NCBI GenBank assembly: GCA_028723545.1
Contig: JAQYER010000119.1
Location: forward strand, 1-33,719
From: Bacillales bacterium
GTDB lineage: Bacteria; Bacillota_I; Bacilli_A; RFN20; CAG-826
DNA length: 33,719 bases
Reading direction: 5' to 3'
This document shows, one piece after another, positions 10,656 through 32,920 of the stretch. Numbering within the stretch: position 1 is the stretch's first letter; each line of letters begins with the position of its first letter. The notes under the pieces were generated by a model. The model was not told where the DNA came from. It searched no databases and saw nothing but the letters and a program-made list of their open reading frames with translations. The translations under genes were made by a program, and so were the position numbers.

Positions 10656-10754
10656 AAATGTTTCCTTTTTAAAGCAATTTATTGCATTAAAAGTATTAAT
10701 TGGTATAATTCATTTGATTTTTGTTATTTTTGATTTATTTTGAAGGAGTGTGTT

Positions 10755-12410
10755 ATGGCAATTTCTAGCGAGCCAGTTTACATTTACGCCTTAGGCGGAC
10801 TATGTGAAGTGGGAAAAAATACTTATTGTATTGAAAATGAAAAAAACATCATCGTCATCGACGCAGGTGTTCGTTTTCCTGAAGCTAATTTACCGGGTGT
10901 TAATTATGTAATACCAGACTATACAAGACTTAAAAATAATCAAAGAAAAATCAAAGCTTTATTTATTACTCATGGCCACGAAGACCATATCGGTGGAATT
11001 CCTTTCTTACTTCAAACTTTATATATACCAGTTATATACGCTCCAAAATTAGCGGCAGCTTTAATCAAACATAAATTAGATGACATGAGAATTAAAACTC
11101 CAGTCGAAATTATTGTTTATGATGAAGATGATGTTATTTCTTGTGGTGATTTCACTGTTTCATTTTTCCATGTAACTCACTCTATCCCTGATTCCTATGG
11201 TATTTGTGTTGATACTCCACAAGGTCGAGTTGTCCATACTGGGGATTTTAAAATCGACTTAACTCCTGTTGGTGAAAATATTAATTTATCAAAAATTGCG
11301 ATGATTGGTTCATCAGGTGTTGATTTATTATTAAGCGATTCAACTAATGCTGAAATTGAAGGATATACTCCAAGTGAAAAAAATGTATATCAATCAATTT
11401 ACGATATTTTTGATACCGCTATCGGAAGAATATTATTTTCTACTTTCTCTTCCAACATTTCTCGTATCCAACAAATCGTTCAAGCTGCAATTGAACATGA
11501 CCGATATATTACTGTAATCGGAAGAAGTATGGAAACAGTTATTAATATTGCTCGTGATTTTGGATATATTAAAGTCCCTGATCGTTATATCGTACCTGTT
11601 TCTGATATTAATCAATATAAACCAAATCAAATATGTGTATTATGCACTGGATCACAAGGTGAACCAATGGCGGCTTTAAGCAAAATCGCAAACGGAGATA
11701 ATCCACATATGAGAATTAATCCTGGAGACACTGTGGTGTTTTCATCTTCCGCTATTCCGGGTAATGGAGTGTTAATTGATCGCGTAGTTAATAAAATCGC
11801 CCATCAAGGAGCGAATGTTCTAACTAATACAATATTAAAAGACGTCCACTCATCTGGCCACCCTTCAAAACAAGAATTAAGATTAATGCTTCGTTTAGTT
11901 AAACCAAAATATTTTATGCCAATTCACGGTGATTATCGCATGTTAAAAATTCATGGTGAAATTGCCACTACAGTTGGTGTTGATCCAAAAAATGTCTTTG
12001 TCTTAAAAAATGGAGAAACATTACAAATGATTAACCATCGTATCGTTGAAGGTAATTCTTTCCCAGCTGATCCAATATATATCGACGGTAAAAATATTGG
12101 AGCGGTATCACAATTTACTCTCCAAGAAAGAGAAGAGATGAAAAATGATGGATATATTAATGTTGTTTTGGCAATTAACAATAATAAAGTTGTTGTAAGT
12201 CCAGAAATTATCGTTAAAGGATTTATTTATAGTGATGCATTTATTTCTAGCATTAAAGAAATTGCGGATAAAGTCACATTATTAACGATTAAAGAAAAAA
12301 TGAATACGGAAGAAATTGAACATAATTTACGTCGCGAAATACGTAATTATGTTTATCGTAAAGTAGAACGTAAACCAACAGTTGTTGTTTCGGTATTAGA
12401 AAAATGTTAA
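10755..12410 (+). CDS. rnj: Ribonuclease J
   Basis: Metallo-beta-lactamase HGHEDHIGG motif, beta-CASP region and C-terminal domain, about 550 aa. GAAGGAG lies 7 nt before the ATG at 10755. Confidence 0.95.
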   Translation: MAISSEPVYIYALGGLCEVGKNTYCIENEKNIIVIDAGVRFPEANLPGVNYVIPDYTRLKNNQRKIKALFITHGHEDHIGGIPFLLQTLYIPVIYAPKLAAALIKHKLDDMRIKTPVEIIVYDEDDVISCGDFTVSFFHVTHSIPDSYGICVDTPQGRVVHTGDFKIDLTPVGENINLSKIAMIGSSGVDLLLSDSTNAEIEGYTPSEKNVYQSIYDIFDTAIGRILFSTFSSNISRIQQIVQAAIEHDRYITVIGRSMETVINIARDFGYIKVPDRYIVPVSDINQYKPNQICVLCTGSQGEPMAALSKIANGDNPHMRINPGDTVVFSSSAIPGNGVLIDRVVNKIAHQGANVLTNTILKDVHSSGHPSKQELRLMLRLVKPKYFMPIHGDYRMLKIHGEIATTVGVDPKNVFVLKNGETLQMINHRIVEGNSFPADPIYIDGKNIGAVSQFTLQEREEMKNDGYINVVLAINNNKVVVSPEIIVKGFIYSDAFISSIKEIADKVTLLTIKEKMNTEEIEHNLRREIRNYVYRKVERKPTVVVSVLEKC

Positions 12411-12952
12411 TTTTAGCTAGTCAATCTCCTCGAAGAAGAGAATTAATCAAACAAATTACTTCTGATTTTGTTGTAATTCCATCTAATGCAGATGAAAGTT
12501 CATTGCACGTTCCAGCATCAGATATGGCTTTAGAACTATCAAAATTAAAAGCCTATGATGTGGCGATGAAGCATCCAAATGATGACGTTTTAGCGTGCGA
12601 TACAGTTGTTATATATAACAACCTTGTATTAGGAAAACCAAAAAATGAAGAAGACGCTTATAATATGCTAAAAATGTTAAGTGGTCATAAACACGTTGTT
12701 ATTTCTGGTTATACATTTATTTCTAAAAATAAAGAAGTTTCAAGAAGTGTTAGAACATATGTTTATTTTAATGAATTAAGTGATGAATTAATTAAAGAAT
12801 ATATAAAAAGCGGCTCTCCAATGGATAAAGCCGGCGCGTATGGTATTCAAGATAAACAATTTAATTTAGTCAAATCAATTGAGGGAAGCTATTATAATGT
12901 TGTTGGCTTTCCATTAGAAGATATTAAAAGACATGTCTTTAATATCAAGTAA
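12404..12952 (+). CDS. maf: Maf-family nucleoside triphosphate pyrophosphatase
   Basis: LILASQSPRRRELI ... AGAYGIQ. Overlaps the rnj stop by 7 nt. Confidence 0.9.
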   Translation: MLILASQSPRRRELIKQITSDFVVIPSNADESSLHVPASDMALELSKLKAYDVAMKHPNDDVLACDTVVIYNNLVLGKPKNEEDAYNMLKMLSGHKHVVISGYTFISKNKEVSRSVRTYVYFNELSDELIKEYIKSGSPMDKAGAYGIQDKQFNLVKSIEGSYYNVVGFPLEDIKRHVFNIK

Positions 12953-13351
12953 TTATTCATTAAATATTCTTTTCGCTAATGATTCTAAATCACCTTCATA
13001 AACGAGGGTGATTTTATTTGACATTTTAATTACACTAGGAAATCCTAATTCATTTAATTTTTCAATATTGACAAGATCATAATTTTTTAAAATTAATGAT
13101 AATCGTGAACCATTGACAAAATGTTCAATAATATTATCTTTACCACCTAAAGAAATTAGCACTTCATCATTATCAATGTTATTAATTTGTGATTGTTTAT
13201 TTAATGATTTCTTTTTTAATAATGAAACAATTAAAAAGATTGATAAAACAATGACAATAATTAAAGCAAAACTAATGGCAATCCAAACACCATATTGTTT
13301 TAGAAAATTATTGAATGGACTTTCGGTTAAATCACTATAAAATATATTCAT
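12953..13351 (-). CDS. Membrane-anchored PTS EIIB(Glc)-like domain protein lacking the phospho-cysteine
   Basis: One TM helix, then LISLGGKDNIIEHFVNGSRLSLILKNYDLVNIEKLNELGFPSVIK. This matches the EIIB pattern (LGGkeNI..v.hCaTRLRl...vd...l..lg..gv), but the Cys position is Asn. The ATG at 13351 is preferred over the TTG at 13378. Confidence 0.5.
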   Translation of the reverse strand: MNIFYSDLTESPFNNFLKQYGVWIAISFALIIVIVLSIFLIVSLLKKKSLNKQSQINNIDNDEVLISLGGKDNIIEHFVNGSRLSLILKNYDLVNIEKLNELGFPSVIKMSNKITLVYEGDLESLAKRIFNE

Positions 13352-13379
13352 GACTTCATTATAGTGAAGAAAGGACAAT

Positions 13380-13943
13380 ATGGCAAATCATTTAGAATGT
13401 GAAATTAAATCAATGATCAATGAACAACAATATTTATATTTATATAATAAATATTTTCATTTAGGAAAATTGATTACACAAGAAAATATCTATTTTAATG
13501 ATCGAAATGATATTTTAAAAAATTTAAAGATATGTTTAAGAATTAGAACTAAACAAGATTCGATTAATTTATATGTTAAAGCCCCTATTAAAGAAGGTAA
13601 TTTAGAAATCAAGCAACCAATTGATTCATTTACAAGACAACAATTAATTCAAAAATGTATTTTGCCAAACGGAGAAATAAAAGATTATCTTCATCAAATT
13701 AATGTTGATGAGAAAGATTTATATTTATCAGGTTCATTAATTACTGAAAGATTATCTTTTTTAGATGGAAAATACTTAATTTGCATCGATAAAAGTTATT
13801 ACAAAAATATTGTCGATTATGAAATCGAAATTGAAGGTCCAACTTTATTAGAAGCTGAACAATACGCGAAAAGTTGGTTTAAAAAAGAAAATATCCCCTT
13901 TAAAGGAGATAATATTCCTAAATCTGTTCGAGCGACTTCTTAA
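13380..13943 (+). CDS. CYTH-domain protein (YjbK-like triphosphate tunnel metalloenzyme)
   Basis: N-terminal ExExK signature (LECEIK), about 187 aa, adjacent to spx as yjbK is near spx in Bacillus. Confidence 0.7.
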   Translation: MANHLECEIKSMINEQQYLYLYNKYFHLGKLITQENIYFNDRNDILKNLKICLRIRTKQDSINLYVKAPIKEGNLEIKQPIDSFTRQQLIQKCILPNGEIKDYLHQINVDEKDLYLSGSLITERLSFLDGKYLICIDKSYYKNIVDYEIEIEGPTLLEAEQYAKSWFKKENIPFKGDNIPKSVRATS

Positions 13944-14365
13944 TCATCATCTTCATCATTCCATGATTCGCCGCACATTCCTAAATGATCACATGCGATT
14001 TGAGCGATTCTTTTCGCGCGAGGAATGAATGTTCTGATTTCTTCTTTATTATAACCAACTTGCATTTTGTGGTCTTCGATCATAATTGGACGTTTTAAAA
14101 TGCTTGGGTTCTTGCGAATAAAATTAATTAATTGAGAAATAGTCATTGAATCAATATCGACGTTGCCTTCTTTAATTATTTTAGATTTTTTAGAAATAAT
14201 GTCATCCGTGCCATTCTCGGATTTGGTAATCATTTCTTTTAATTCATTTGGATTTAAAGTCGAATTAAAAATATTCTTTTCGACATAAGGGATCCCTTCT
14301 TCGTCAAAGAATTTTTTTACTTTACGGCAACTTGAGCAACTAGGCGATGTATATAATCTAATCAT
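13940..14365 (-). CDS. spx: Spx/ArsC-family redox-sensing transcriptional regulator
   Basis: MIRLYTSPSCSSCRKVKKFFDEEGIPY carries the N-terminal CxxC. 141 aa with an unusual C-terminal extension. Confidence 0.85.
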   Translation of the reverse strand: MIRLYTSPSCSSCRKVKKFFDEEGIPYVEKNIFNSTLNPNELKEMITKSENGTDDIISKKSKIIKEGNVDIDSMTISQLINFIRKNPSILKRPIMIEDHKMQVGYNKEEIRTFIPRAKRIAQIACDHLGMCGESWNDEDDD

Positions 14366-14431
14366 ATTGGTTCCTATCTCAAATAATATTATATCAATTG
14401 TAGCAAATTATTAAATGTTTATATTGATAAA

Positions 14432-14460
14432 TTGACCGAATAAAATATTAAGACTATAAT
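14432..14460 (+). promoter_or_regulatory. trpS sigma-A promoter
   Basis: TTGACC-17 nt-TATAAT, 28 nt upstream of the ATG. The -10 is embedded in the palindrome GACTATA-A-TATAGTC (14452-14466). Confidence 0.55.
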
Positions 14461-14488
14461 ATAGTCAATATTTTTTTAGGACACATTT

Positions 14489-15475
14489 ATGGCAAGAATT
14501 TTAAGCGGTATTAAACCAACAGGACAATTAACATTAGGAAATTATATTGGAGCAATTAAAAACTTCGCTCGCGTGCAACACGATGGAGAACCATTTATTT
14601 TTATCGCGGATCTCCACGCTTTGACTTTACCAATTGACCCAAAAACATTAAGAAACAATTCACGCGATATCGCTGCATATTATTTAGCAGCCGGACTCGA
14701 CCCAAAAACAACTACTATCTTTTTACAAAGTTCAGTTCATGAACATTCAGAATTAGCTATTATTTTACAAAATTATTTATATATGGGTGAATTATCAAGA
14801 ATGACTCAATATAAAGATAAAACTCAAAAGATGGATAACAATGCGATTGGATTAGGATTATTTGCTTATCCAGTTTTGATGGCTGCTGATATTGTTTTAT
14901 ATGATGCACCTCGAATTCCAGTTGGCGAAGACCAAGTTCAACACGTCGAATTAGCGCGTGATTTAGTCAAGCGTTTTAATAATCGTTATGGTGATGTTTT
15001 AGTTATGCCAAAAGCGGAAGTAACTAAAGTTGGTAAACGTATTATGTCATTATCTGATCCAACTAAGAAAATGTCTAAATCTGATCCTAAAGGCGATATT
15101 TATTTAAGCGATGATTTAAAAACAATGCGTAAAAAAATTATGTCTGCAGTCACTGATTTAGGACATGAAGTTAAATATGATGTTGTTAATAAGCCAGGTA
15201 TATCAAATTTAATGACGATATATTCAGCATTAACTAATAAAACAATGGAAGAAATCGAACAAGAATTCGCTAATAAAGGTTATGGCGATTTCAAAAGAAG
15301 TGTCGCTGATGCATTAATTAATGAAATGGAACCATTTAAAGCAAGATATGAACAAATTATTAATTCTGGCATCGTTGATGAAGTATTAAAAGAAGGACAA
15401 ATTCGCGCTTCAAAAGCCGCGAAAGAAACGCTTAAACGCGTTCAACAAGCGGTTGGATTATATACTTTAAAATAA
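14489..15475 (+). CDS. trpS: Tryptophan--tRNA ligase
   Basis: Class I synthetase with a KMSKS motif (KKMSKSDP) and a GIKPTG..TLGNYIGA N-terminus, 328 aa. Confidence 0.95.
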   Translation: MARILSGIKPTGQLTLGNYIGAIKNFARVQHDGEPFIFIADLHALTLPIDPKTLRNNSRDIAAYYLAAGLDPKTTTIFLQSSVHEHSELAIILQNYLYMGELSRMTQYKDKTQKMDNNAIGLGLFAYPVLMAADIVLYDAPRIPVGEDQVQHVELARDLVKRFNNRYGDVLVMPKAEVTKVGKRIMSLSDPTKKMSKSDPKGDIYLSDDLKTMRKKIMSAVTDLGHEVKYDVVNKPGISNLMTIYSALTNKTMEEIEQEFANKGYGDFKRSVADALINEMEPFKARYEQIINSGIVDEVLKEGQIRASKAAKETLKRVQQAVGLYTLK

Positions 15476-16284
15476 TGGATAAATGTTTAATTGTTCTTGA
15501 TATGGATGGAACTCTTCTTAATAAACGTAAGGAGATTTCTTTGTTAACTAAAAATTATTTATTGGAATTATCTAAACAAGGCCATAAAATCATTTTGGCT
15601 AGCGGTCGACCAGTTCGTTCAATGATTTCATATTATGACGAATTAAAATTAGATACTCCAATGATTTGTTATAATGGAGCGTTCGTCACTAATCCATATA
15701 ATAAAGAATATGATTCCACTGCTTTTACTTTTCCAATTGAAGATGTTAAACAAATTATTACCGATTTAGGAACAACAATTTGTAAAGTAATGTGTGAGTC
15801 AGAAACCAATATTTATTTAGATAAAGAAGATTCATATTTAAAAAATTATTTTTGGTATGAAGGAATGAATATGATTAAAGGAGATGTAAGAGATACATTA
15901 AAAGAACCTCCTTTAACTTTTATTGCGAGATTAAAAGGCACAATCGATAAAGATTTTATTTTTAACACTGTTAATAAGCACCATAATATTCGTGCGAGAT
16001 TTTGGACAGATGCGCCTTATTTTGAATTATATCGAATTGAGGCATCTAAAGGTGGATGTATGCTCGATATTGCGTCGATGTATGATATTGATAAAGACCA
16101 TATCATTGTTTATGGTGATGCAGATAACGATATTGAATTATTTGAACATGCTTCCATTTCTGTCGCTATGTCGAATTCAAAAAGCCGCGTAAAAGAAAGC
16201 GCGACAATTATTACTGAACACGATAATGACCACGATGGTATTTATTATTCTTTAAAAGAAATATTATCTAAGAGATTTTCTTAA
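15475..16284 (+). CDS. Cof-type HAD-IIB phosphatase
   Basis: LDMDGTLL motif I and GDADNDIELF motif IV. A TAATG overlap couples it to trpS. Confidence 0.85.
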   Translation: MDKCLIVLDMDGTLLNKRKEISLLTKNYLLELSKQGHKIILASGRPVRSMISYYDELKLDTPMICYNGAFVTNPYNKEYDSTAFTFPIEDVKQIITDLGTTICKVMCESETNIYLDKEDSYLKNYFWYEGMNMIKGDVRDTLKEPPLTFIARLKGTIDKDFIFNTVNKHHNIRARFWTDAPYFELYRIEASKGGCMLDIASMYDIDKDHIIVYGDADNDIELFEHASISVAMSNSKSRVKESATIITEHDNDHDGIYYSLKEILSKRFS

Positions 16285-17233
16285 TTAAGTCTAAATATTG
16301 TTTATTTAATTTAATTTCAAATGTTTTATTTGATAAATATGATAATTTCCCGCTTACATTTTTAAAGATAATTTTGTATGCGTGCAAAAATTGGTTTTCA
16401 AAATTGTATTGTTCTTTAAATTGGCGGTTAATCGTGAAATTACCGTATTTTGAATCACCAATAATTGGATGATTGATATATGAAAGATGAACACGAATTT
16501 GATGTGTTCTTCCAGTAATTAAATTAACATCTACTAAACTATATTGTTTAAAATTTTGATAAGGAACGACGATGCTTTTTGCAGATAACGCTCCATTTTT
16601 TACATTGCCAACTTTGACTAATCCAGTTTTTTCATTTTTAATTAGTGGAGCGTCAATTTCCATTGGTGAATCTATTTTTCCTACAACTAACGCTAAATAA
16701 TGCTTTTCAAGATTGTTTTTATCTTTTAATAACTGTTCTAATATTTGTAAAGATTCTAAATTTTTAGCAAACATAATAAGACCTGAAGTATTTCGATCTA
16801 ATCGATGAGCAGGTGCGGGAATAAATCCTTTATTATCTTTTGGATTATATTGTCCTTTAAAATATAAATAATTTAATACTTCATTGGCTAAAGTAATTCT
16901 TTTTTCATTTTGATCTCCGTGAACTAACACTCCACGAGGTTTATTAATAATTAATATATTTTCATCTTCATAAACAATCGGATAATTTAAATCTTTTTTC
17001 AAAGCTTCTTTTGGTTTATTAAATTCTTCTAATTGAGAATCAGTTACATATATTGAAACAACATCATTTTCTTGAATAATATAATTTTCTTTTACCCAAT
17101 GACCATTTACTTTAATATCTTTTTTACGAAATAAACGATAAATAAAGCTTAATGGAGCTTCATTTAAGTATTTGCGAACATATTTATCAATTCTTTGATT
17201 TGATTCTAAATTAGTTATAGTAATGTTTTTCAT
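16268..17233 (-). CDS. RluA-family (RluD/RluC-like) 23S rRNA pseudouridine synthase with an S4 domain
   Basis: HRLDRNTSGL and GRTHQIRVH motifs. The ATG at 17233 (MKNITITN...) is preferred because the longer ORF to 17308 runs into tRNA-Ser. Confidence 0.85.
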   Translation of the reverse strand: MKNITITNLESNQRIDKYVRKYLNEAPLSFIYRLFRKKDIKVNGHWVKENYIIQENDVVSIYVTDSQLEEFNKPKEALKKDLNYPIVYEDENILIINKPRGVLVHGDQNEKRITLANEVLNYLYFKGQYNPKDNKGFIPAPAHRLDRNTSGLIMFAKNLESLQILEQLLKDKNNLEKHYLALVVGKIDSPMEIDAPLIKNEKTGLVKVGNVKNGALSAKSIVVPYQNFKQYSLVDVNLITGRTHQIRVHLSYINHPIIGDSKYGNFTINRQFKEQYNFENQFLHAYKIIFKNVSGKLSYLSNKTFEIKLNKQYLDLIKKIS

Positions 17234-17294
17234 AAAATGATTAACAATATTGTATATTGAATTTTTGTTTTTTAACACATATAATTCAAAAAAC

Positions 17295-17383
17295 GGAGAA
17301 TTACCCAAGTGGCTGAAGGGGCGGGCTTGGAAAGCTCGTAGGCTTTAACCGGCGCTGGAGTTCGAATCTCCAATTCTCCGCCA
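17295..17383 (+). tRNA. tRNA-Ser (anticodon GGA), type II, CCA encoded
   Basis: Acceptor GGAGAAT/ATTCTCC, anticodon stem CGGGC/GCTCG, loop TTGGAAA, long variable arm and TTCGAAT T-loop. Confidence 0.9.
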
Positions 17384-17393
17384 TATTAGTAGA

Positions 17394-17437
17394 ATAGGTT
17401 TGATACAATGATTTCTATCAGTATCAAGCCTTTTTTT
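17394..17437 (+). repeat. Left direct repeat (putative attL core)
   Basis: ATAGGTTTGATACAATGATTTCTATCAGTATCAAGCCTTTTTTT. Confidence 0.8.
17397..17437 (+). terminator. tRNA-Ser terminator (also the left direct repeat)
   Basis: AGGTTTGATAC pairs with GTATCAAGCCT (11 bp, one G-U), followed by T7. Confidence 0.7.
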
Positions 17438-17541
17438 GTATTTAGAATAGGTGCGAACTTAGATAATAGGGTAATTCTGGTTTCTTTTTTGATTTCTAGA
17501 CAGCTAATTATTATAAGGATATTAAGAAGCTCTAAATCCTG

Positions 17542-17585
17542 TTTACACGATTTGAGGCTAGGGTGCTAAAAATTTTACACGATTT
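17542..17585 (+). repeat. Left-arm motif cluster: TTTACACGATTT - 7 nt - GGGTGCTAAAAATTTTACACGATTT
   Basis: TTTACACGATTT occurs at 17542-17553 and 17574-17585. GGGTGCTAAAAATT occurs at 17561-17574. Confidence 0.8.
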
Positions 17586-17616
17586 CCAATAAATTGATTT
17601 CATCATCACAGTTTAT

Positions 17617-17653
17617 CCCTCATTTATTCCCTCATTTATTCCCTCATTTTATT
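17617..17653 (+). repeat. Three tandem copies of the 12-nt unit CCCTCATTTATT
   Basis: Copies at 17617-17628 and 17629-17640 are exact. The copy at 17641-17653 has one extra T. The array ends 12 nt before a TGgTAATAT extended -10 for the cargo gene. Confidence 0.85.
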
Positions 17654-17706
17654 TAAAAAATAGTTGGTAATATGATATGATTTACGCATAAAGTGAGGAT
17701 AATAAG

Positions 17707-19119
17707 ATGCAAAAAGATTTCATTTTAGACTTAATAAATAACAATAATGAATGCGAGTGGATTGAATTTAAAGAGAATTGGTTTAATCCAGAGCAACTTG
17801 GTGAGTATATTTCTTCTTTATCAAATGGAGCTGCGCTAAAAGGACAACCATATGGCTATTTTATTTGGGGAGTTCAAGATAAAACAAGAACTATCGTAGG
17901 TACATCATTTAATTATCAAATTGATTATAAAAAAGAGCCTTTAGAAAACTATTTAGCTAGAAATCTTAATCCAAGTATTCACTTTAAATTTGAAGATTAT
18001 AAAGAATTGGGATTAGTCGTTTTAAAAATACCTTGTGCCGAAAAATATCCAACATCATTTAATGGCAAAAGATTTTTGAGAATCGATTCTAGTAAGGCAT
18101 GTTTAAACGATTATCCATATAGAGAAGTGGATCTATTTAAAATATTGAGTGAAGGTAAGCCATCATTAATAAAGGAAGAATCAAATAATCAAGAACTTAC
18201 ATTTGGTGGTTTATTAACTTATTATGCTTCTAAAGGTATATACCTCAATAACGATACATATAAGAAAAATTTGAAGCTAATTACTAACGATAAGTATAAT
18301 AAACTTGCGGAGCTTCTTTCTGATCAAAACCCATATACATTCAGGATCTCTACATTTGCTGGGAAAACAAAAGCTGATGTTCTCTATTCAGTGAAGGATT
18401 ATGGATATAAATGCATATTGTTATCTCTTGAAGAAATCCTATCATACTTTGAAGCAATAAACATTCCTCAAGCTGACGAAGAAAATAGAAAAGTTGAAAG
18501 ACTTGAAACACTTTTGTTTGATCCTGATGCGATTAGAGAAGCTATTGTTAATGCCGTTGTTCATAATAAATGGATTGATGGTAATGCACCTCAAATAGCA
18601 GTATTTACTGACAGAATAGAGATATTATCACATGGTGGAATACCATTTGGTCAAACACAAAAGGGCTTTTTATTAGGTGAAAGTAAACCTGTGAATAATG
18701 AATTATCTGACATATTTTTACAATTACATATTTCAGAAAGAACAGGGCGAGGCGTTCCTACTATCATTAAAGCTTTTGGTGAAAAGTCAATTCGATTCGA
18801 AGATAGCTTTATCATAGTTACCATTCCCTATAATTTTATTAATTCGATTAACACATCTGTTGTGTCAATCGGCACTGGAGTTAAGAATGAGGGAATTAAA
18901 GAAGGAATAACTGAGGGTATAAAATTGTATTTAAATCGAAATCAAGAACGTATTTTAAATGAGATAAGAAATAATCCTAATATCACTACAATAATGCTTG
19001 TTAATAAATTAAATGTAAGTGATGCAACTGTAGAACGTGCTTTAGCATTTTTGAAGAAAAATTCTATCATAAAACGTATCGGCTCAAATAAAACTGGTTA
19101 TTGGGAGGTATTAAAATGA
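17707..19119 (+). CDS. Schlafen/AlbA_2-domain + HATPase_c_4 + C-terminal wHTH protein; this family is often annotated as 'putative transcriptional regulator / RecG-like ATP-binding protein'
   Basis: The N-terminus ECEWIEFKENW...YFIWGVQD fits AlbA_2. REAIVNAVVHNKWIDGNAPQIAVFTDRIEILSHGGIPFG and ...ERTGRGVPTIIKAF fit HATPase_c_4. The C-terminus ILNEIRNNPNITTIMLVNKLNVSDATVERALAFLKKNSIIKRIG is a wHTH. GAGGA RBS. Confidence 0.65.
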   Translation: MQKDFILDLINNNNECEWIEFKENWFNPEQLGEYISSLSNGAALKGQPYGYFIWGVQDKTRTIVGTSFNYQIDYKKEPLENYLARNLNPSIHFKFEDYKELGLVVLKIPCAEKYPTSFNGKRFLRIDSSKACLNDYPYREVDLFKILSEGKPSLIKEESNNQELTFGGLLTYYASKGIYLNNDTYKKNLKLITNDKYNKLAELLSDQNPYTFRISTFAGKTKADVLYSVKDYGYKCILLSLEEILSYFEAINIPQADEENRKVERLETLLFDPDAIREAIVNAVVHNKWIDGNAPQIAVFTDRIEILSHGGIPFGQTQKGFLLGESKPVNNELSDIFLQLHISERTGRGVPTIIKAFGEKSIRFEDSFIIVTIPYNFINSINTSVVSIGTGVKNEGIKEGITEGIKLYLNRNQERILNEIRNNPNITTIMLVNKLNVSDATVERALAFLKKNSIIKRIGSNKTGYWEVLK

Positions 19120-19232
19120 TCAATAGTACCCTATTCGAAGGTGAATTATTATGAACAAATTGTGGCCAGAAAAAATAAAGAGATGCAAACACTAATATCG
19201 AAAGAAGCTACTTTTGATGCTGGTGTAGATAA

Positions 19233-19706
19233 ATTAATATCCCATTGAGAAATATATTATTTGAACAAATCACTCGAATATATAATGAGTTGTCTGTCGA
19301 TGATTTTAGTAAAATGCCATTTAAAAATGCGGATGGATATCATAGTAAGACAATAGCATATTCCATTTGGCATATTTTTAGAATTGAAGATATTGTTGCT
19401 CATGAATTGATTGAATAAAATAATCAAATTCTTTTTACTGATGATTACATAAAAAGAATCAATGCTCCTATTATTACACCTGGTAATGAATTAAAAGGTG
19501 TTGAGATTAGTGAAGTATGGTTAGTTAATTATTGGTGTAGTAAATATATAAAAGGATTAATTCAGATGCCATTTTCTCGCCATTGGATTATGTATATAGA
19601 AGCAATTAATCGAATTAAATCAAAATTATTAACGAAGGGTGCTAACTTTTTTACACGATTTAAAAGTAGAGGTGCTAAAAATTGTATTAAAACATTTCTA
19701 CTTTGA
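19233..19706 (+). pseudogene. DinB-superfamily-like gene remnant
   Basis: A single frame reads ...FEQITRIYNELSVDDFSKMPFKNADGYHSKTIAYSIWHIFRIEDIVAHELIE, then TAA at 19416-19418, then NNQILFTDDYIKRINAPIITPGNEL...FSRHWIMYIEAINRIKS. There is no start codon, the region upstream is frame-shifted, and there is one in-frame stop. Confidence 0.4.
19637..19683 (+). repeat. Right-arm motif cluster: GGGTGCTAACTTTTTTACACGATTT - 9 nt - GGTGCTAAAAATT
   Basis: The same two motifs as at 17542-17585, in the same orientation. Confidence 0.8.
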
Positions 19707-19718
19707 CATATAACGAGC

Positions 19719-19762
19719 ATAGGTTTGATACAATGATTTCAGTCAGTACCAAGCCTTTTTTT
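19719..19762 (+). repeat. Right direct repeat (putative attR core)
   Basis: ATAGGTTTGATACAATGATTTCAGTCAGTACCAAGCCTTTTTTT. It differs from the left copy at 3 positions, one of which breaks the hairpin. Confidence 0.8.
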
Positions 19763-19833
19763 CTTTTAGTTCAATTTAAGGCAAAAGAAAAATGTATTAA
19801 TCAAATGAATCGATCTTTAAGATAATTAATTAT

Positions 19834-19876
19834 AAAAAAGTGTTATAATTTTAAAAAAATTTTAATTTTATAACAC
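19834..19876 (-). terminator. Terminator of the methyltransferase gene
   Basis: GTGTTATAA (19840-19848) pairs with TTATAACAC (19868-19876), with further A/T pairing inside. On the minus strand it is followed by TTTTTTAT. Confidence 0.55.
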
Positions 19877-19927
19877 ATTAATGATAATTCTAATGAATGG
19901 TTTTATGTCACGTAAATAATATTTATA

Positions 19928-20725
19928 TTATTTTTTAACGATATCTAATACATGCGAACTCGCTCCAATAAGATCAGGACGTTCTGCAATTGAAAAATGA
20001 TATTTTACATATTCTTGGAATTGTTCTTCGCTTAATCTTGTTATTGCACTTCTAATATAATCTGACGCTCCATCTTGAGCGATAATTTTATATCTTTTTA
20101 AATTTAATAATCGGTTAAATTCATCAATATCTTCAATTCTCACCATTGTGTATAAATCACCATCAATTGGTTTTGTGTGATAATTTTCATCAAGTTGACC
20201 ATTATTTAAACATTCTAAAATATGTCCTTTCACTATCGCGTAAGTAATAACAGCATATTCATTCATATAATAACTTATTAAAATAAAGCCATCTTTTTTG
20301 GTAATTCTTTTAGCTTCACTTAAAGCTTTTAATTGTTCATCTTTATTTAATAAATGATACATTGGTCCAAACAATAAAGTTACATCAAAAGTATCATCAT
20401 TAAACATTGATAAATCTAAAGCGTTTCCTTGATGAATTTTCACATTCGATTTTTTATTTTTAAAAACATCAATATTGTGTTGAACTAATTCAACTGCGGT
20501 AACATCATATCCTAAAGAATCTAAATAAACACTATATCTTCCAGTACCTGCTCCGATATCAATTATCTTTTTTGATTTATCATTATTTAATATTTCTAAT
20601 ATATATTTGATTGTTGTTAAAAATTCGACTTGTCCATGTCTAGTACTTAAACGGTTTTCTTCTTCGAAATGATTATAATAATCTTCGATAAGGGAAATAT
20701 TAGGATTTGTTGATTTGAAATTCAT
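19928..20725 (-). CDS. Class I SAM-dependent methyltransferase
   Basis: IIDIGAGTGRYSVYL (motif I) and a DVTLLFGPMYHL region. The ATG at 20725 is preferred because the longer ORF would read through the upstream terminator hairpin. Confidence 0.8.
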   Translation of the reverse strand: MNFKSTNPNISLIEDYYNHFEEENRLSTRHGQVEFLTTIKYILEILNNDKSKKIIDIGAGTGRYSVYLDSLGYDVTAVELVQHNIDVFKNKKSNVKIHQGNALDLSMFNDDTFDVTLLFGPMYHLLNKDEQLKALSEAKRITKKDGFILISYYMNEYAVITYAIVKGHILECLNNGQLDENYHTKPIDGDLYTMVRIEDIDEFNRLLNLKRYKIIAQDGASDYIRSAITRLSEEQFQEYVKYHFSIAERPDLIGASSHVLDIVKK

Positions 20726-20742
20726 GATTATATTATAAATAT

Positions 20743-20765
20743 AAAAAAGCACTCTTTCGAGTGCT
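20743..20765 (-). terminator. Terminator of the 22917-20785 operon
   Basis: AGCACTC-TTTC-GAGTGCT, followed on the minus strand by TTTTTTAT. Confidence 0.7.
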
Positions 20766-20784
20766 AATTTATTTTTGTTAATAA

Positions 20785-21186
20785 TTATTCAGCTTTAGGT
20801 TGTTCTACTGGAGTAGCTTCAACAGTTTTTGGAGCGTTAGCAGCTTCGATTGCTTCAAGATTAATTGCTCCATGACGTGAAGCACGGCGTTGGCTTTTTT
20901 CACCAGCGCGATCAGCTTTTTTAGCATTTACGGCAAGAGAGATGACAAACCACGCAATGCCTACTGCGAAAAGGATTAATCCCATGATTCTAAAAAATCC
21001 CCAATCGCCTGTTGACCATTTTAACGCTTCAGCGATTTTAGCATCCGCTTGACGTAAAATAACGGAATTCGCTAAATTTTCAATTAAAGAAACAATAATT
21101 AAAGCAAATCCTGCTAAAGCAATTGTTCCACCACTAATATACCAAGCTAATTCTTTGCCGGAAACTGACACATTTTCTTTTGCCAT
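20785..21186 (-). CDS. Small two-TM membrane protein with a charged Ala/Glu-rich C-terminal tail
   Basis: AGGAGG lies 7 nt before the ATG at 21186 (MAKENVSVSGK...). Two hydrophobic helices, tail ...KKADRAGEKSQRRASRHGAINLEAIEAANAPKTVEATPVEQPKAE. No family recognised. Confidence 0.6.
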   Translation of the reverse strand: MAKENVSVSGKELAWYISGGTIALAGFALIIVSLIENLANSVILRQADAKIAEALKWSTGDWGFFRIMGLILFAVGIAWFVISLAVNAKKADRAGEKSQRRASRHGAINLEAIEAANAPKTVEATPVEQPKAE

Positions 21187-21215
21187 AATAATCCTCCTAC
21201 TCAATCAAGAGTTTA

Positions 21216-22067
21216 TTAAGCTTGTGGTTGGGCTTTTTGAGCTTCAGCACGAGCTTCTTCAATAAATTGATTCATGAATGGAATATAACATCCTTTCCAT
21301 TCATTTTCCCATCTAATTAAATGGTCAATAATAATTTTCTTTAATTCAGAAATAACTTGACCAAAGTTTTTACCTACAGGTAAATCACGTCTTCCACTAG
21401 TCATTTCAATAAGAGCGAATAATGGATCAACTACTTCATAATAATCTGATGAAGTAATGTGTGATTTTTGTCTTGTTAAATTGCAAAGATTAACAACTTT
21501 TGAAAGGTCATTTTGAATGAAATTAGATTGTGGAGTAATTCCGCCTTTAGCTTCTTGTCTTGCTTTATTGTATTCAGCGAATAAATAATCTAATTCATCA
21601 AGTAATAAACGGAATGCAAATCCACGATAATATAATTCATCGATTTTAAGAACTTGTTCTAAGACATTTTTTTCAAATTGTTGATTTTGAATCGCTCCAC
21701 TAACATGAGCATTAACAATGTCGTTAATAACTTCGTGTAATTGAATAGTTTGCTCTAAGATTGTAATATTTTGAGCGTGATCAACTGAAATTCCTTCTTG
21801 ACGATCTTTAACGATTGTTGAATCATCACCATAAATTTCATCATAGAAATTATTGATTTGTTCAAATACTTTTTGTCCTTGTTCACCAGAATTATCTAAG
21901 CAAACTTTTAAAGGTGTTTGATTTTCAATTTCGAGTTTTACTTCTTTTTTGCGAAGATCATAGAATTTTTTATCGTAACTTTCTTTACGAATGGCATATT
22001 CTAATGTGCCACGGATGACGTCATTATAATGAAGTAATGACGCGATTGTTTTTGAATAATTATTCAT
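21216..22067 (-). CDS. Hypothetical soluble, predicted-helical protein (about 283 aa)
   Basis: Long ORF whose ATG at 22067 sits inside the last codons of the upstream HAD gene (gATGAATAA), with GAAGGAAGGA upstream. No motif recognised. Confidence 0.6.
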   Translation of the reverse strand: MNNYSKTIASLLHYNDVIRGTLEYAIRKESYDKKFYDLRKKEVKLEIENQTPLKVCLDNSGEQGQKVFEQINNFYDEIYGDDSTIVKDRQEGISVDHAQNITILEQTIQLHEVINDIVNAHVSGAIQNQQFEKNVLEQVLKIDELYYRGFAFRLLLDELDYLFAEYNKARQEAKGGITPQSNFIQNDLSKVVNLCNLTRQKSHITSSDYYEVVDPLFALIEMTSGRRDLPVGKNFGQVISELKKIIIDHLIRWENEWKGCYIPFMNQFIEEARAEAQKAQPQA

Positions 22068-22917
22068 CAATTTTTCCTTCCTTCTTCATGACATAGTTTT
22101 CTAGGTCTTTGAATTTTTTCAACGTATGGCTAGCATACTTCGAAACCGATAGCGGTGCGTGAGCCATACAGAAACTGTTTTCTTTATATTCATTAAACAT
22201 GGATATGTCGTTACCAGAATCACCAACGACATAAATGTCGCTGTGATTAATATTAAAGTATTCTTCGTAAAATTTCAATCCATTAGCTTTAGAACATCCT
22301 TTTGGAGTAATTTCAATCATTTCTCCAGACCAGCTAAATTCAACTGAATCTTTGAATACTTCACGTAACTCTTTGTTGGCTTGTTTAGCTCTTTCTTTGT
22401 TTTTTTCACCTAAGCCAAACATAACCATAATCTTATAAACTTTACCATGATTGATTTCATTAATAAAACCAGTTTTTGAAATAGTGAATTTATCATTATA
22501 TACTCCTTGGAAGAAACTCCAAAGATTGTAACCAATATAATAAAACAATGTATCGAAATTGTATTTTGATAAAAATTCTTTATCTTCGCTCATTAACCAT
22601 ACCGCGCGTAATTTATAATGAGATTCCAAATATTCAATCACTGGATTAATATCGTTTGGATTAAAATAATCATCTTTTATTTTCTTTCCATCATGAACGA
22701 TAAATGAAGAATTACATCCAATAAAATCAACAGGTCTTTTTAATCTTTTAATGATGAGATTATTCGCGCGAATATTTCTTCCAGTAACACAGACGACTCT
22801 ATTTCCTGCATCGATAAATTTTCTTAAAAATCTAACAGATTTGCTAGAAATTAATCTTCTTGTTCTTTTAGGATAGAAAAGCGTTCCATCTAAATCAGTA
22901 GCTATTACTTTACACAT
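22060..22917 (-). CDS. Cof-type HAD-IIB phosphatase
   Basis: ATDLDGTLF motif I and GDSGNDISMF motif IV. Confidence 0.85.
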   Translation of the reverse strand: MCKVIATDLDGTLFYPKRTRRLISSKSVRFLRKFIDAGNRVVCVTGRNIRANNLIIKRLKRPVDFIGCNSSFIVHDGKKIKDDYFNPNDINPVIEYLESHYKLRAVWLMSEDKEFLSKYNFDTLFYYIGYNLWSFFQGVYNDKFTISKTGFINEINHGKVYKIMVMFGLGEKNKERAKQANKELREVFKDSVEFSWSGEMIEITPKGCSKANGLKFYEEYFNINHSDIYVVGDSGNDISMFNEYKENSFCMAHAPLSVSKYASHTLKKFKDLENYVMKKEGKIDE

Positions 22918-23038
22918 AACTTTTTATATTCTAAATATAAAATAAATTTTTATCAATATAAATCAAATTATTATTCAATAATTATTGATAATAATCGCAT
23001 AATTAATTGAAAATATCTGACAAAACGCCATTGCCATT

Positions 23039-23065
23039 AAAAAAGAGGTAGCTTTCGCCGCCTCT
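23039..23065 (-). terminator. hpf terminator
   Basis: On the minus strand AGAGGCGGC-GAAA-GCTACCTCT (one mismatch) is followed by TTTTTTAAT. Confidence 0.6.
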
Positions 23066-23084
23066 ATAAATTGATAGATATAAA

Positions 23085-23642
23085 TTACGCTAAATCGTTT
23101 TCTGCCTCTAAGACACCATATCCACCATCATCACGGCGATATACAACAGCGATTTTTCCATCTTCGTCATCAAGATACATATAGAAATCGTGATCGATTG
23201 CTTCCATTCTTGTGACTGCTTCATCAATGTTCATTGGTTCAAGGAAGACTGATTTAGTTCTTACAACTGTTTCTTCTTCCTCTGGTTCATCAACATATGG
23301 TTCAAAATTATCAATTGCGACCGCTTTACCTAAACCAATTTTTCCTGATTTTGAGCGATCCATTCTTGTTTTAAGTTTTCTCATTTGACCTTCGAGTTTG
23401 TCAATTGCGAGGTCAACACCAGCATATAGGTCATCATTTTTTACTTCTGCTCGGAAGTCCATTTGAGGAGTAAAGATTGTAACTTCAATTTTCGATCCTA
23501 CTTTGTAAGAGCGAACAACAACACGGCAAGTTACATCGTCGTTGATGACAAAATATTTGTCCATACGAGCAAGTTTCTTTTCAATAGAGGAGCGAATTCC
23601 GTCCGTGACTTCGATATTCTTCCCCAAGATTTGATATTTCAT
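23085..23642 (-). CDS. hpf: Ribosome hibernation promoting factor, long form
   Basis: MKYQILGKNIEVTDGIRSSIEKKLARMDKYF, plus the C-terminal dimerisation domain ...VVRTKSVFLEPMNIDEAVTRMEAIDHDFYMY. 185 aa. Confidence 0.9.
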   Translation of the reverse strand: MKYQILGKNIEVTDGIRSSIEKKLARMDKYFVINDDVTCRVVVRSYKVGSKIEVTIFTPQMDFRAEVKNDDLYAGVDLAIDKLEGQMRKLKTRMDRSKSGKIGLGKAVAIDNFEPYVDEPEEEETVVRTKSVFLEPMNIDEAVTRMEAIDHDFYMYLDDEDGKIAVVYRRDDGGYGVLEAENDLA

Positions 23643-23745
23643 AGAATATCCTCCTTCGATAGTAAATGTAGATTGATCTACACTTATATTATCTCATTTT
23701 TTTCTTAAATTTTCTTGTTATAAAAAAATACATTTTTTAAGCATA

Positions 23746-23772
23746 TAAAAAGTCCACCATATTTAGTGGACT
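23746..23772 (-). terminator. metK terminator
   Basis: AGTCCAC (23751-23757) pairs with GTGGACT (23766-23772). On the minus strand it is followed by TTTTTATAT. Confidence 0.65.
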
Positions 23773-23781
23773 TAATAAATA

Positions 23782-24948
23782 TTAATCTAATAATTTTTTA
23801 ATATCTTCAACCTTATCAAGTTTCTCCCAAGGAATATTTTGATCTGGTCTTCCAAGATGGCCATAATTACAAATTTCATGGTATTTGAATGTTGGCTTAC
23901 GAAGCGATAAATGTTCAATGATTTTTCCTGGTCTTAAATCAAAGATTTGATTAATGATTGATAAAATTTGTTCATCGGAATAATGAGATGTTCCAAATGT
24001 TGATATTCCAAGAGAAACTGGTTCAGAAACTCCAATTGCATATCCTAATTGAATTTCAAGTCGGTCAGCAACTCCTGCCGCGACTAAGTTTTTTGCAATA
24101 TATCTTGCCATATATGCGGCTGAACGATCAACTTTGGTTGGGTCTTTTCCAGAGAAGGCTCCACCACCATGACGAGACGCTCCACCATAAGTATCAACAA
24201 TAATTTTTCTACCAGTTAATCCAGTATCTCCCATTGGTCCACCAATAACAAAACTTCCAGTAGGATTAATTAATAATTGAAAATCTTCATTTAAGGAAAA
24301 AGATCTAACAACTGGTAAAATAACATCTTCTTTAACGTATTTTTTAAATTCATCCATGTTAATATCTGGATCATGTTGAATTGACATTAAAACAGTTACT
24401 AGACGAGGAGATTTATTATCTTCATAATCAATTGTCACTTGTGATTTCATATCTGGACGAGCATGAACGAATTTTCCTTCTTTTCTTAATTTAGTTGCCA
24501 CTCTAACTAATTTATGGGCTAAAGAAATAGCAAGAGGCATATAGCCTTCTGTTTCGTTTGATGCATAGCCAAACATAATTCCTTGATCACCTGCACCAAT
24601 TTTTGTTGAATCATTATTTTCAACTCCCATCGCGATATCAGGAGATTGAGTTTTAATTTTTACATCAACTTTGACAGTATCAGCATTAAAACCATATTCT
24701 GGCTTTGTATAGCCAATGTCACGAATTACTTCTCTTGCAATTTGATCATAATTAACATGTGCTTTTGTGGTAATTTCTCCACCAATCAAGCAATAATCAG
24801 TCGTAACAAATGTTTCACAAGCAACATGTGACATTGGGTCTTGTTCTAAACAAGCATCGAGAATTGCATCACTAATTTGATCAGCAACTTTGTCTGGATG
24901 TCCTTCTGATACAGATTCACTAGTAAATAGATTTAATTGTTTTTTCAT
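23782..24948 (-). CDS. metK: S-adenosylmethionine synthase
   Basis: LFTSESVSEGHPDKVADQISD, GAGDQGIMFGYA and GGGAFSGKDPTKVDRS. GGAGG lies 11 nt before the ATG at 24948. Confidence 0.95.
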   Translation of the reverse strand: MKKQLNLFTSESVSEGHPDKVADQISDAILDACLEQDPMSHVACETFVTTDYCLIGGEITTKAHVNYDQIAREVIRDIGYTKPEYGFNADTVKVDVKIKTQSPDIAMGVENNDSTKIGAGDQGIMFGYASNETEGYMPLAISLAHKLVRVATKLRKEGKFVHARPDMKSQVTIDYEDNKSPRLVTVLMSIQHDPDINMDEFKKYVKEDVILPVVRSFSLNEDFQLLINPTGSFVIGGPMGDTGLTGRKIIVDTYGGASRHGGGAFSGKDPTKVDRSAAYMARYIAKNLVAAGVADRLEIQLGYAIGVSEPVSLGISTFGTSHYSDEQILSIINQIFDLRPGKIIEHLSLRKPTFKYHEICNYGHLGRPDQNIPWEKLDKVEDIKKLLD

Positions 24949-24967
24949 TTTAAAGATAACCTCCAAT

Positions 24968-25125
24968 AAAAAATGGCCCCCACCCTTTGTGGAAAGCCAT
25001 TATCATTTTGGTTTTTCCTTTCTTATCGCTCGAAGGGGGTGGTCCTTCGCTAAGGAGAGCACTTACTAAATATTTAGAGTTGCTACCGCTTTTTTTCATC
25101 CTTATTAAGCGGTTCTTGATAAGAA
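24968..25125 (-). promoter_or_regulatory. SAM riboswitch (S-box/SAM-I-like aptamer 25020-25125 plus terminator 24968-25000)
   Basis: The minus-strand RNA reads UUCUUAUCAAGAA...GGAUGAA...GCAAC...AAGUGCU...GAUAAGAA. These are the P1 strands, a kink-turn-like GA, and the GCAAC and GUGC junctions. It continues AUGGCUUUCCAC-AAAGG-GUGGGGGCCAU plus U6. CCACCCCC in the aptamer 3' part can pair with GGGUGGGGG as an antiterminator. Confidence 0.75.
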
Positions 25126-25170
25126 CTGTAGATATATCTTAATAATAAGATAATGTTAAGTCAAATAAAA

Positions 25171-25425
25171 TTATATTGATTTTAATGCTTTAGCGATTTG
25201 GTCAGGGCAAGATGTTTCTCTTGTTCGACTTCCACGGCATTTAATTCCTTCTAATTTCGCTATTACTTCGTCTTTATTCATTCCTTTAACCAAAGATGAA
25301 ATACCTTGAAGATTGCCATGGCATCCGCCTAAAATTTTTAAATCAGTAACGACGTTATTATCATCGACAGTAATTTCAAATAATTGTGAACAGACGTTTA
25401 CTGGTTTATATTGAAATGTTTTCAT
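25171..25425 (-). CDS. TSCPD-domain protein (TIGR03905-like, about 84 aa)
   Basis: ...GGCHGNLQGISSLVKGM...GIKCRGSRTRETSCPDQIAKAL contains the eponymous TSCPD motif and conserved Cys residues. Confidence 0.75.
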   Translation of the reverse strand: MKTFQYKPVNVCSQLFEITVDDNNVVTDLKILGGCHGNLQGISSLVKGMNKDEVIAKLEGIKCRGSRTRETSCPDQIAKALKSI

Positions 25426-27683: not shown

Positions 27684-27768
27684 GCACTGGTGGCGGAACT
27701 GGTAGACGCGTACGTTTGAGGGGCGTATGGGGAGACCCGTGTGAGTTCGATTCTCATCCGGTGCACCA
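27684..27768 (+). tRNA. tRNA-Leu (anticodon GAG), type II, CCA encoded
   Basis: Acceptor GCACTGG/CCGGTGC (one G-U), anticodon loop TTGAGGG, variable arm TGGGGAGACCCGT and TTCGATT T-loop. Confidence 0.9.
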
Positions 27769-32813: not shown

Positions 32814-32833
32814 TTCTTGAAAAATGCTTACGT

Positions 32834-32917: not shown

Positions 32918-32920
32918 CGT

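Follow-up and report, generated by a model that had tools for sequence, protein, structure and literature searches.

A recombinase-less islet behind tRNA-Ser(GGA) appears to be a new member of a large serine recombinase integrative-element family with cis-mobilizable derivatives

Results

The stretch of DNA analysed here (the window, 33,719 nt or 33.7 kb) is contig JAQYER010000119.1 of assembly GCA_028723545.1; coordinates refer to its forward strand, and L-numbers such as L352 are labels of contigs or loci compared with it. A tRNA-Ser(GGA) gene lies at 17295–17383 on the plus strand (ARAGORN; Rfam tRNA, 48.8 bits), and its encoded CCA forms the left boundary of an inserted element of 2,325 bp (17384–19708, plus strand), which extends from the first base after CCA to a terminal ...CTTTGACA. 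The element is missing in the conspecific contigs L352 and L361, and its borders agree with the consensus of the family described below. Between its ends, only an AlbA_2-type open reading frame (ORF) and a pseudogene are found, and no recombination or transfer functions are encoded. The chromosomal right flank, outside the element, harbors a convergent S-adenosylmethionine-dependent methyltransferase gene (19928–20725, minus strand; Pfam), which in the empty-site contig L352 follows the tRNA flank without interruption. The islet displays no anomaly in GC content, and an Rfam search of it matched the tRNA alone.

Direct repeats of 44 nt lie beside tRNA-Ser with the coordinates and sequences claimed in an initial annotation made from the sequence alone. 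Both copies (17394–17437 and 19719–19762) have the same orientation, are identical at 41 of 44 positions and follow the pattern ATAGGTTTGATACAATGATTTC-N5-GTAyCAAGCCTTTTTTT; the 22-mer ATAGGTTTGATACAATGATTTC occurs twice in the window vs. zero occurrences expected (100 shuffles). A repeat search extends the pair to 61 nt with 85% identity (17382–17442 and 19707–19767, spacing 2325), and the similarity therefore begins at the CA of the tRNA's CCA. Apart from the two element junctions, the 44-mer is found at no further locus in the window, which is not the pattern of a repetitive extragenic palindromic (REP) or dispersed repeat, and no exact match was found in IMG/VR. The possibility raised along with the annotation, that the 44-mer is a dispersed terminator or REP-like sequence, is thus not borne out.

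Folding of the left copy (17394–17437, plus strand, attL side) yields a stem of 11 bp with T7 behind it (−17.4 kcal/mol, z = −4.9), in agreement with the hairpin that had been annotated. This copy displays the hallmarks of an intrinsic (rho-independent) terminator, with a stable GC-containing hairpin, a U-run and a structure conserved in the family, and a simple terminator scanner overlooks it because its loop exceeds 8 nt. A second TAGAATAGGT copy, read from the sequence, lies just past the T-run (17443–17452, plus strand) and is retained in the subfamily relatives L192 (TAGAATAGG) and L139 (both copies TAGAACAG). The right copy folds less stably (−11.9 kcal/mol, z = −3.2) because of one internal mismatch. 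A stem-breaking substitution is thus present as described, but it does not reflect decay after insertion: the hairpin of the empty-site allele is already mismatched at the position that is C in the right copy of the window, so that the mismatch is a resident polymorphism.

The initial annotation had predicted an empty site composed of tRNA-Ser, one repeat copy and CTTTTgGTTCAATTT, and this is exactly the order in L352, a metagenome contig of the same species with about 98% identity across 13 kb. L352 is collinear with window positions 10278–17437 (97.8%) and 19707–25558 (98.1%), with both alignments overlapping by one 56-nt repeat copy, and its junction CTCCGCCA|TATAACGAGCATAGGTTTGATACAATGATTTCTGTCAGTAACAAGCCTTTTTTTCTTTTGGTTCAATTT joins tRNA-Ser and a single repeat copy to the methyltransferase-side flank (CTTTTgGTTCAATTT). 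L361 represents a second empty allele, with an IS66 inserted farther along. Insertion at the tRNA 3' flank is thereby confirmed, and the two copies are not a core-genome feature carried by all relatives. The empty site was reached through a variant RluD allele (P0123), and none was found among contigs with identical RluD or methyltransferase; contigs encoding an identical AlbA_2 protein, RluD or methyltransferase are 97–99% identical to the window, and every one that crosses the tRNA has the element. As judged from these aligned contigs, the segment is an insertion that is polymorphic within the species, and very probably a site-specific one derived from a mobile element. The resident flank on the attR side (B', 19709–19795, plus strand) contains the right repeat copy (19719–19762), extends to ...AAGGCAAAAGAAAAATG and is nearly identical to the post-tRNA sequence of L352. 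Its sequence is also similar to the initial ~85 nt of the left-end type of L141, L196 and L353 described below, so that an earlier occupant may have left the "empty" site behind as a stub.

Near both ends the element carries direct arm repeats, which in the window are confined to its interior. The 26-nt units read AGGGTGCTAA-N-TTTACACGATTT (summary form GGGTGCTAA-N-TTTACACGATTT) and lie at 17560–17585 and 19636–19661, accompanied by half units. On the left (17536–17585, plus strand), a half unit TTACACGATTT (17543–17553) precedes the full unit AGGGTGCTAAAAATTTTACACGATTT (17560–17585), whereas the right arm and terminal segment (19636–19708, plus strand) comprise the full unit at 19636–19661 and the terminal GGTGCTAAAAATTGTATTAAAACATTTCTACTTTGACA (19671–19708), with the element stopping at CA. 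Tandem sigma-70 promoters were considered for these repeats and rejected, the TTTACA-TAAAAT spacing being 20 nt and a promoter scanner leaving the arms unflagged. Metagenomes of human gut, rumen and digesters contain at least 120 stretches with the double-arm pattern, and 124 loci were oriented and compared; four IMG/VR contigs carry the arm motif in tandem.

The left end starts directly after the encoded CCA in 32 junctions, 29 with a tRNA or transfer-messenger RNA (tmRNA) gene nearest the arms. Targets comprise at least 12 tRNA species plus tmRNA, namely tRNA-Ser(GGA/CGA/GCT), Leu(CAG/CAA/GAG), Gly(TCC), Arg(CCG), Gln(CTG), Ala(GGC), Trp, His, Thr and tmRNA. A conserved left end, T-N3-A-N-TAGAATAGG, is followed by hairpin, T-run and GTGC, and the distance from CCA to the first arm amounts to 166–191 nt at 25 junctions, with 189 nt being commonest. 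Left ends behind Leu-GAG, Ser-GGA and Gly-TCC are 94–95% identical over 260 nt, and those of a second subgroup, behind tmRNA, Arg-CCG, Gln-CTG and His-GTG, are 89–94% identical. Because near-identical left ends stand behind different tRNAs, with divergence between targets no greater than within a single target, the family is, on these alignments, not tied to one tRNA. The family hairpin displays compensatory changes in 5 of 10 pairs and few broken ones (35 variants, RNAalifold), and by this covariation is under structural selection. An imperfect dyad around the junction, read by eye, takes the form CTTAGA-CA-TCTAAC in the L153 type and TTCTACTTTGA-CA-TATTAGTAGAA in the window type. Half-unit arrays of four to five TTTTAACGATTTG and about six to eight TTACACGATT lie ahead of the full arms in L141 (6980–7300) and L196 (300 nt after tmRNA); the motif ACACGATT suggests itself as the core of a putative protein-binding site.

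Right ends consist of two to three arms and a fixed-length terminal segment, GGTGCTAAAATTGTATTAAA..., ending in CA, and are nearly identical to that of the window (19636–19708) in L097, L139, L208 and others. The right end (...CTTTGACA) is the same regardless of the tRNA used and no tRNA body is duplicated, which excludes a displaced tRNA fragment. Beyond it follow a family-like hairpin with T-run, the left end of a next element, or unrelated DNA (L114, L205); tandem arrays were found in L212, L197, L136 and L228. The direct repeat at the window locus, first interpreted as a duplication of the tRNA terminator, is thus real, but what it contains is not a duplicated tRNA-gene fragment. Its left copy belongs to a left end that also stands behind different tRNAs in further hosts; it is a terminator brought by the element, at which the tRNA transcript now ends. 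Its right copy is the displaced resident terminator.

Further junction types were observed. At the right junctions of L114, L143, L146, L147, L157, L185 and L194, ...GACA or ...AACA is followed by GT(A/C/T)(A/G)AGT(A/G)A(A/C)GG(A/G)GGA(C/T)TTA(A/T)ACCC..., and in some loci of this GT(A/C/T)(A/G)AGT class a truncated serine recombinase gene comes next on the minus strand. A minus-strand serine-recombinase element stands directly past the resident hairpin stem in L208 (about 4275–4400) and L170 (about 490–620), reading GGTTTGATAC-AA-GTATCAAGCC|CGTTAGGG... with the T-run replaced; the hairpin itself may thus be a target for another element. In the window, no arm motif lies near the tRNA-Leu(GAG) gene (27684–27768), a target in other hosts that is here followed by an unrelated terminator, nor near the Val-Tyr-Gln cluster (32738–32996, the last being Gln(TTG)), and both sites appear unoccupied.

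Complete single-contig copies of the family span 0.8–5 kb, contain cargo only, without a recombinase, and are often arranged in tandem. The first ORF past the left arms is on the plus strand in all 37 left ends, an AlbA_2-type gene being the commonest (5 of 37). Cargo is often made up of defence genes and includes AlbA_2-type proteins, type I and type III restriction-modification (RM), PDC-S14, XRE and PadR regulators, GNAT, NUDIX, lipoproteins and peptidases.

Across the 124 loci, large serine recombinases (LSRs) are the most recurrent gene family (27 loci). A pair or trio typically resides just inside the right arms, with LSRs of 446 aa and 526 aa on the plus strand and, in some cases, one of 482 aa on the minus strand, and 14 of 72 right or unclassified arm sets have an LSR among the four ORFs that precede them. 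Their domains are Resolvase, Recombinase and Zn_ribbon_recom (Pfam, ORFs of L083 and L094), and they match phrog_95 "integrase" with 1e-115 to 1e-139. CcrB is their best NCBIfam match, at 139 bits vs. a cut-off of 900, which does not support orthology with CcrA, CcrB or CcrC. In L131, L151, L169 and L191 the right arms are immediately preceded by C-terminal LSR fragments of 155–238 aa, and in L187 and L176 such fragments stand a short distance upstream; these 3' fragments look like footprints of internal deletions.

The hairpin, the arms and the ...CA terminus of the window element are common to the LSR-encoding phage contigs L083/L232, L094, L181, L197 and L340. L083/L232, a 40-kb IMG/VR contig, represents a tailed phage, as shown by its genes for portal, major head and tape-measure proteins, and ends in the order 83-aa helix-turn-helix (HTH) protein, LSR446, LSR526, HNH protein, right arms. 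L340 is the complementary left half, in which tRNA-Leu(GAG)-CCA is followed by the left end and arms, type III RM, PDC-S14, an ImmA-like protein and the same DUF2800-AAA_24-helicase replication module as in L083/L232. Phages that share structural genes and are devoid of the LSR module are likewise devoid of arms. Portal, major head and tape-measure genes identify the autonomous relatives as phages, and no conjugation genes were seen in them, which speaks against derivation from an integrative and conjugative element (ICE). No tyrosine recombinase was found among the sampled family ORFs, comprising representatives of the larger clusters and small-element cargo, both inspected by eye, and ~40 ORFs of L083, L097, L110, L232, L260 and L340 compared with Pfam or PHROGs. 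Collectively, these comparisons indicate that the element shares its ends with recombinase-encoding relatives. A full-text literature search retrieved no description of the family, which is weak evidence of absence; the family is apparently widespread, undescribed and phage-derived.

As annotated, the islet encodes no integrase: Pfam analysis of the ORFs in the islet and in the window detected no recombinase and no tyrosine integrase, and tblastn with the family serine recombinases gave no match in the whole 33.7 kb. The expected one intact and one decayed gene are present between the repeat copies. The intact cargo gene (17707–19119, plus strand) encodes a 470-aa protein with AlbA_2 (Schlafen-like), HATPase_c_4 and winged-helix (wHTH) domains (Pfam) and a full-length match to phrog_12156 (3e-53); its homologues form the second most recurrent family cluster (11 of 124 loci). 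Its assignment as a known defence gene was rejected, PADLOC matches being marginal only (E about 1e-4). The decayed second gene (19239–19637, plus strand) was delineated by tblastn with an intact 198-aa ORF of L036 and contains an in-frame stop and a gap of ~54 codons. A "DinB" identity for it was likewise discarded, with no support from Pfam and a weak match to the MST/DinB fold below cut-off.

Three tandem 12-nt units (CCCTCATTTATT) were identified by repeat search upstream of the AlbA_2 gene (17609–17649, plus strand), with four units in L036 and L039. These repeats are complementary (32 nt, 88%) to 18886–18917 inside the ORF; the complementary repeat at 18886–18925 is the linker region of the AlbA_2 gene, encoding NEGIKEGITEG. 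The complementarity between 17609–17649 and 18886–18925 could be antisense pairing or a coincidence of two short tandem repeats. Some strains (right tails of L004 and L009, left head of L048) diverge on either side of the 9-mer AATTAATCG (window 19604–19612) inside the decayed gene, which looks like an insertion with a 9-bp target duplication and inserted ends TAAGCGTAAATAAATACC... and ...GGGGTTTATTGACGGATAC.

Other occupants were found at tRNA-Ser within the window's species. In L358 the cassette is a different one: the first 520 nt past tRNA-Ser contain a family-like hairpin and, as arm repeats unlike those of the window, five copies of CTATAAAAAACGATAGC and three of AATGGCGTAATAA, and an AlbA_2-type gene for a 442-aa protein follows. 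L356 has a different hairpin type. In L353, a window-type element is followed by another family left end of the full L141 type, and in L039–41 by a LysR/Fe-ADH/CBAH block, and L046 harbors a PNP_UDP_1 gene ahead of a window-type right end. L004 and L009 display a recombinant attL, in which a B-type 10-mer is joined to a P'-type tail. The final ~400 nt of L353 (window orientation), past the L141-type left end, are markedly GC-rich and represent either foreign cargo or a chimeric assembly. L006 and L010, each about 2.3 kb long and beginning and ending inside the repeats, raised the possibility of circular forms but were judged to be assembly breaks from mixed strains.

In related species, the order MetK-HPF-HAD-hyp284-(hyp139)-tRNA-Ser-RluD is syntenic, with nothing in between in eight species representatives and unrelated cargo in others. 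The intervening genes of the element are absent in 24 of 24 related species representatives. At 53–68% aa identity, these 24 GTDB relatives are too distant to serve as empty sites, and they show the tRNA flank as a variable spot. A second, unrelated islet family was observed at the tRNA-Ser(GGA) flank of other species, in L012 (0–1.7 kb downstream of tRNA-Ser), L025, and also L011, L013, L018, L019 and L024. It carries a single AAA_14/DUF4143 ATPase gene and its own internal repeats TTTTCCCnACTTTCTTTTA; its bounding repeats copy CCGCCA, flank and terminator, with a decayed right copy, and its left flank is conserved despite differing tRNA sequences. On the other side of the window tRNA, a 346-aa RluD-type ORF (16268–17308, minus strand) overlaps the tRNA gene, and the 321-aa gene-caller product (16268–17233) is the database form.

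Discussion

The islet appears to be a new member of an LSR integrative-element family with cis-mobilizable derivatives. We read 17384–19708 as a miniature, recombinase-less member of a serine-recombinase phage family that is mobilised in trans, with a probability of roughly 0.6. Full-size members are tailed temperate phages that encode two or three LSRs, and members of the family insert immediately past the encoded CCA of tRNA or tmRNA genes. The left end provides the tRNA with a new terminator (hairpin and T-run), behind which lie 26-nt arms and plus-strand cargo, and the right end contributes further arm repeats and stops at ...CA, with the resident terminator displaced to the far side; the 44–61-nt direct repeat results from the presence of both the element terminator and the displaced resident one. 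In the mechanism envisaged, full-size relatives would integrate through their LSRs by crossover at or beside CA|T. Miniatures may arise through internal deletion and would then be movable when a full-size relative resides in the cell, its LSRs catalysing their integration and excision in trans. An accessory protein probably binds the arm repeats, a candidate being the 83-aa HTH protein encoded upstream of the LSRs. For the single step of LSR-mediated mobilisation in trans, we consider the odds to be about even.

The cis-mobilizable nature proposed in the initial annotation fits the family evidence, with ends shared with recombinase-encoding relatives, tandem arrays and many recombinase-less copies, but the relatives are LSR temperate phages and not tyrosine-integrase ICEs. 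Several points weigh against mobilisation of a miniature in trans. Neither an excised circle nor an attP-type contig (right end joined to left end outside a chromosomal array) was observed, the 33.7-kb window contains no LSR detectable by tblastn, and no single contig holds both ends of a full-size element, the 40-kb IMG/VR contig and L340 each stopping before the other end. An LSR lies close to only about a fifth of the right ends (the 14 of 72 arm sets given above). LSRs are not known to require arm-type repeats or long identity. The 41/44 identity of the window copies is far higher than in most family members, and this unusual likeness, together with the recombinant attL of L004 and L009, indicates that homologous exchange or gene conversion also acts.

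An immobile prophage remnant could present the same structure. An LSR phage at tRNA-Ser would have been stripped, by internal deletion, of all DNA separating the left-end cargo from the right arms, the 2.3-kb piece would never have moved as such, and the empty sites would either never have been lysogenised or have lost the remnant by recombination between the repeats. That such deletions occur is evident from the truncated LSR 3' ends beside right arms at other loci; the second cargo gene is decaying, and the presence of the element in all contigs with the window-identical RluD allele fits vertical inheritance in a sublineage. However, many small copies with both ends exist behind different tRNAs, often in tandem, and AlbA_2 homologues are the first cargo behind several tRNAs, so that the same deletion would be needed repeatedly. 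The window copy moreover bears no LSR footprint, and within the species this single site harbors a number of distinct small cassettes. A remnant that never moved is, in our view, unlikely.

A lambda-type element would be moved by a tyrosine integrase encoded elsewhere, with the arms as arm-type integrase/Xis sites and the 44–61-nt repeat as common core; direct arm repeats do flank the junction, and a tRNA gene accompanied by a long direct repeat is the classical signature. Such an origin is highly improbable, as the recurrent recombinases are of the serine type and the sampled ORFs include no tyrosine recombinase. Furthermore, the tRNA body is not duplicated, the right end is constant whichever tRNA is used, and near-identical left ends behind different tRNAs are unlike the products of tRNA-specific tyrosine integrases.

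Cassette exchange by homologous recombination would require no dedicated recombinase: hairpin and arm segments would serve as homology anchors only, between which cargo is swapped after transformation or transduction. In line with this, L004 and L009 carry the recombinant attL (B-type 10-mer and P'-type tail), cargo differs between shared ends (L046 vs. the window; tmRNA loci L123, L130 and L132), and the window copies are unusually alike. Exchange leaves unexplained, however, the first arrival behind a dozen tRNAs in hosts of 27–41% GC, the base-precise CCA|T junction and the fixed ...CA right end beside unrelated DNA (L114, L205), and we give it a very slim chance as the sole process. Chance or a dispersed terminator/REP-like repeat bracketing ordinary core genes, suggested by the terminator-like hairpin of the repeat, is already refuted by two copies vs. 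zero expected, an empty site with exactly one copy, intervening genes absent from all 24 related species representatives and an arm motif found only at the element ends.

Islands next to tRNA genes are commonly attributed to tyrosine integrases, each specific for a single tRNA gene. The family described here departs from that model by a junction exactly at the CCA end, near-identical ends behind many tRNAs and tmRNA, and associated recombinases of the serine type. In uncultured low-GC Bacilli of gut and rumen, phage-borne LSRs might even use the CCA end that all tRNA and tmRNA genes share as their target, with practically any such gene open to insertion, and recombinase-less cassettes with shared ends would be stacked there in trans, each bringing a replacement terminator, in an undescribed system of integron-like defence-gene shuffling; this wider generalisation is tentative, and we hold it at rather less than even odds. 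If the LSR link holds, it would account for the spread and accumulation of small recombinase-less defence and accessory genes downstream of tRNA genes in Bacilli of gut and rumen, which have received little study, and would suggest serine integrases that, unusually, recognise tDNA ends in general, a property of practical interest to genome engineers. The arm motif combined with the CCA|T...hairpin signature offers a simple means to delimit such islets in metagenome-assembled genomes.

Among known systems, the staphylococcal cassette chromosome elements (SCCmec and pseudo-SCC, with CcrAB or CcrC) use paired LSRs, insert at the 3' end of a conserved RNA-related gene (rlmH) and form composite tandem arrays that include ccr-less units with shared repeats. 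The present family resembles them in its paired LSRs with CcrB as best NCBIfam match, in targeting the 3' end of an RNA-related gene and in tandem arrays with recombinase-less units. It differs in that the target is a tRNA and not rlmH, SCC has neither arm repeats nor a phage backbone, and the LSRs score 139 bits vs. the 900-bit CcrB equivalog cut-off. The cis-mobilizable elements (CIMEs) of Streptococcus thermophilus, related to ICESt1 and ICESt3, derive from tyrosine-integrase ICEs at the fda locus. Like CIMEs (sensu Pavlovic/Bellanger), the window element is non-autonomous, carries the att sites of a related autonomous element, is devoid of recombination genes and takes part in tandem accretion, but its relatives are LSR phages at tRNA ends and not ICEs.

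Small size, a single direction, the absence of a recombinase, stacking at one site and a hairpin-forming boundary for each unit are also shared with integron gene cassettes and clusters of attC sites lacking integron integrases (CALINs). Unlike in integron cassettes, neither IntI nor attC is present, the boundary hairpin is a 10–11-bp terminator stem instead of R''-L''/L'-R', and arm repeats are found at both ends; a test of the element for attC and IntI/attI was negative, as was the search for tyrosine recombinases among the sampled ORFs. The tycheposons of Prochlorococcus are described as carriers of cargo for which several tRNA genes serve as integration sites and which accumulate into tandem islands (bioRxiv 10.1101/2020.12.28.424599). 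By that description alone, cargo, the use of several tRNA genes and tandem islands are common to both, whereas the phylum and the ends differ.

The ssrA islands of Dehalococcoides (PMC3146451) insert into the tmRNA gene with DsiB, a CcrB-like LSR, and form tandem arrays bounded by direct repeats, in which some units without the integration module were proposed to be cis-mobilizable. Their repeat equals 20 bp of the ssrA 3' end, with crossover in the T-loop, a single target gene and the integration module beside attL (PMC3146451). A tRNA-like target (tmRNA), tandem arrays, LSR-based integration and module-less units thus recur in the present family, which differs in its junction after CCA, many tRNA targets, no duplication of the tRNA body, LSRs at the right end, arm repeats and autonomous members that are tailed phages. 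Unlike ssrA islands, SCC and CIMEs alike, it combines a CCA-precise junction behind many tRNAs with an element-borne terminator, arms at both ends and a phage backbone.

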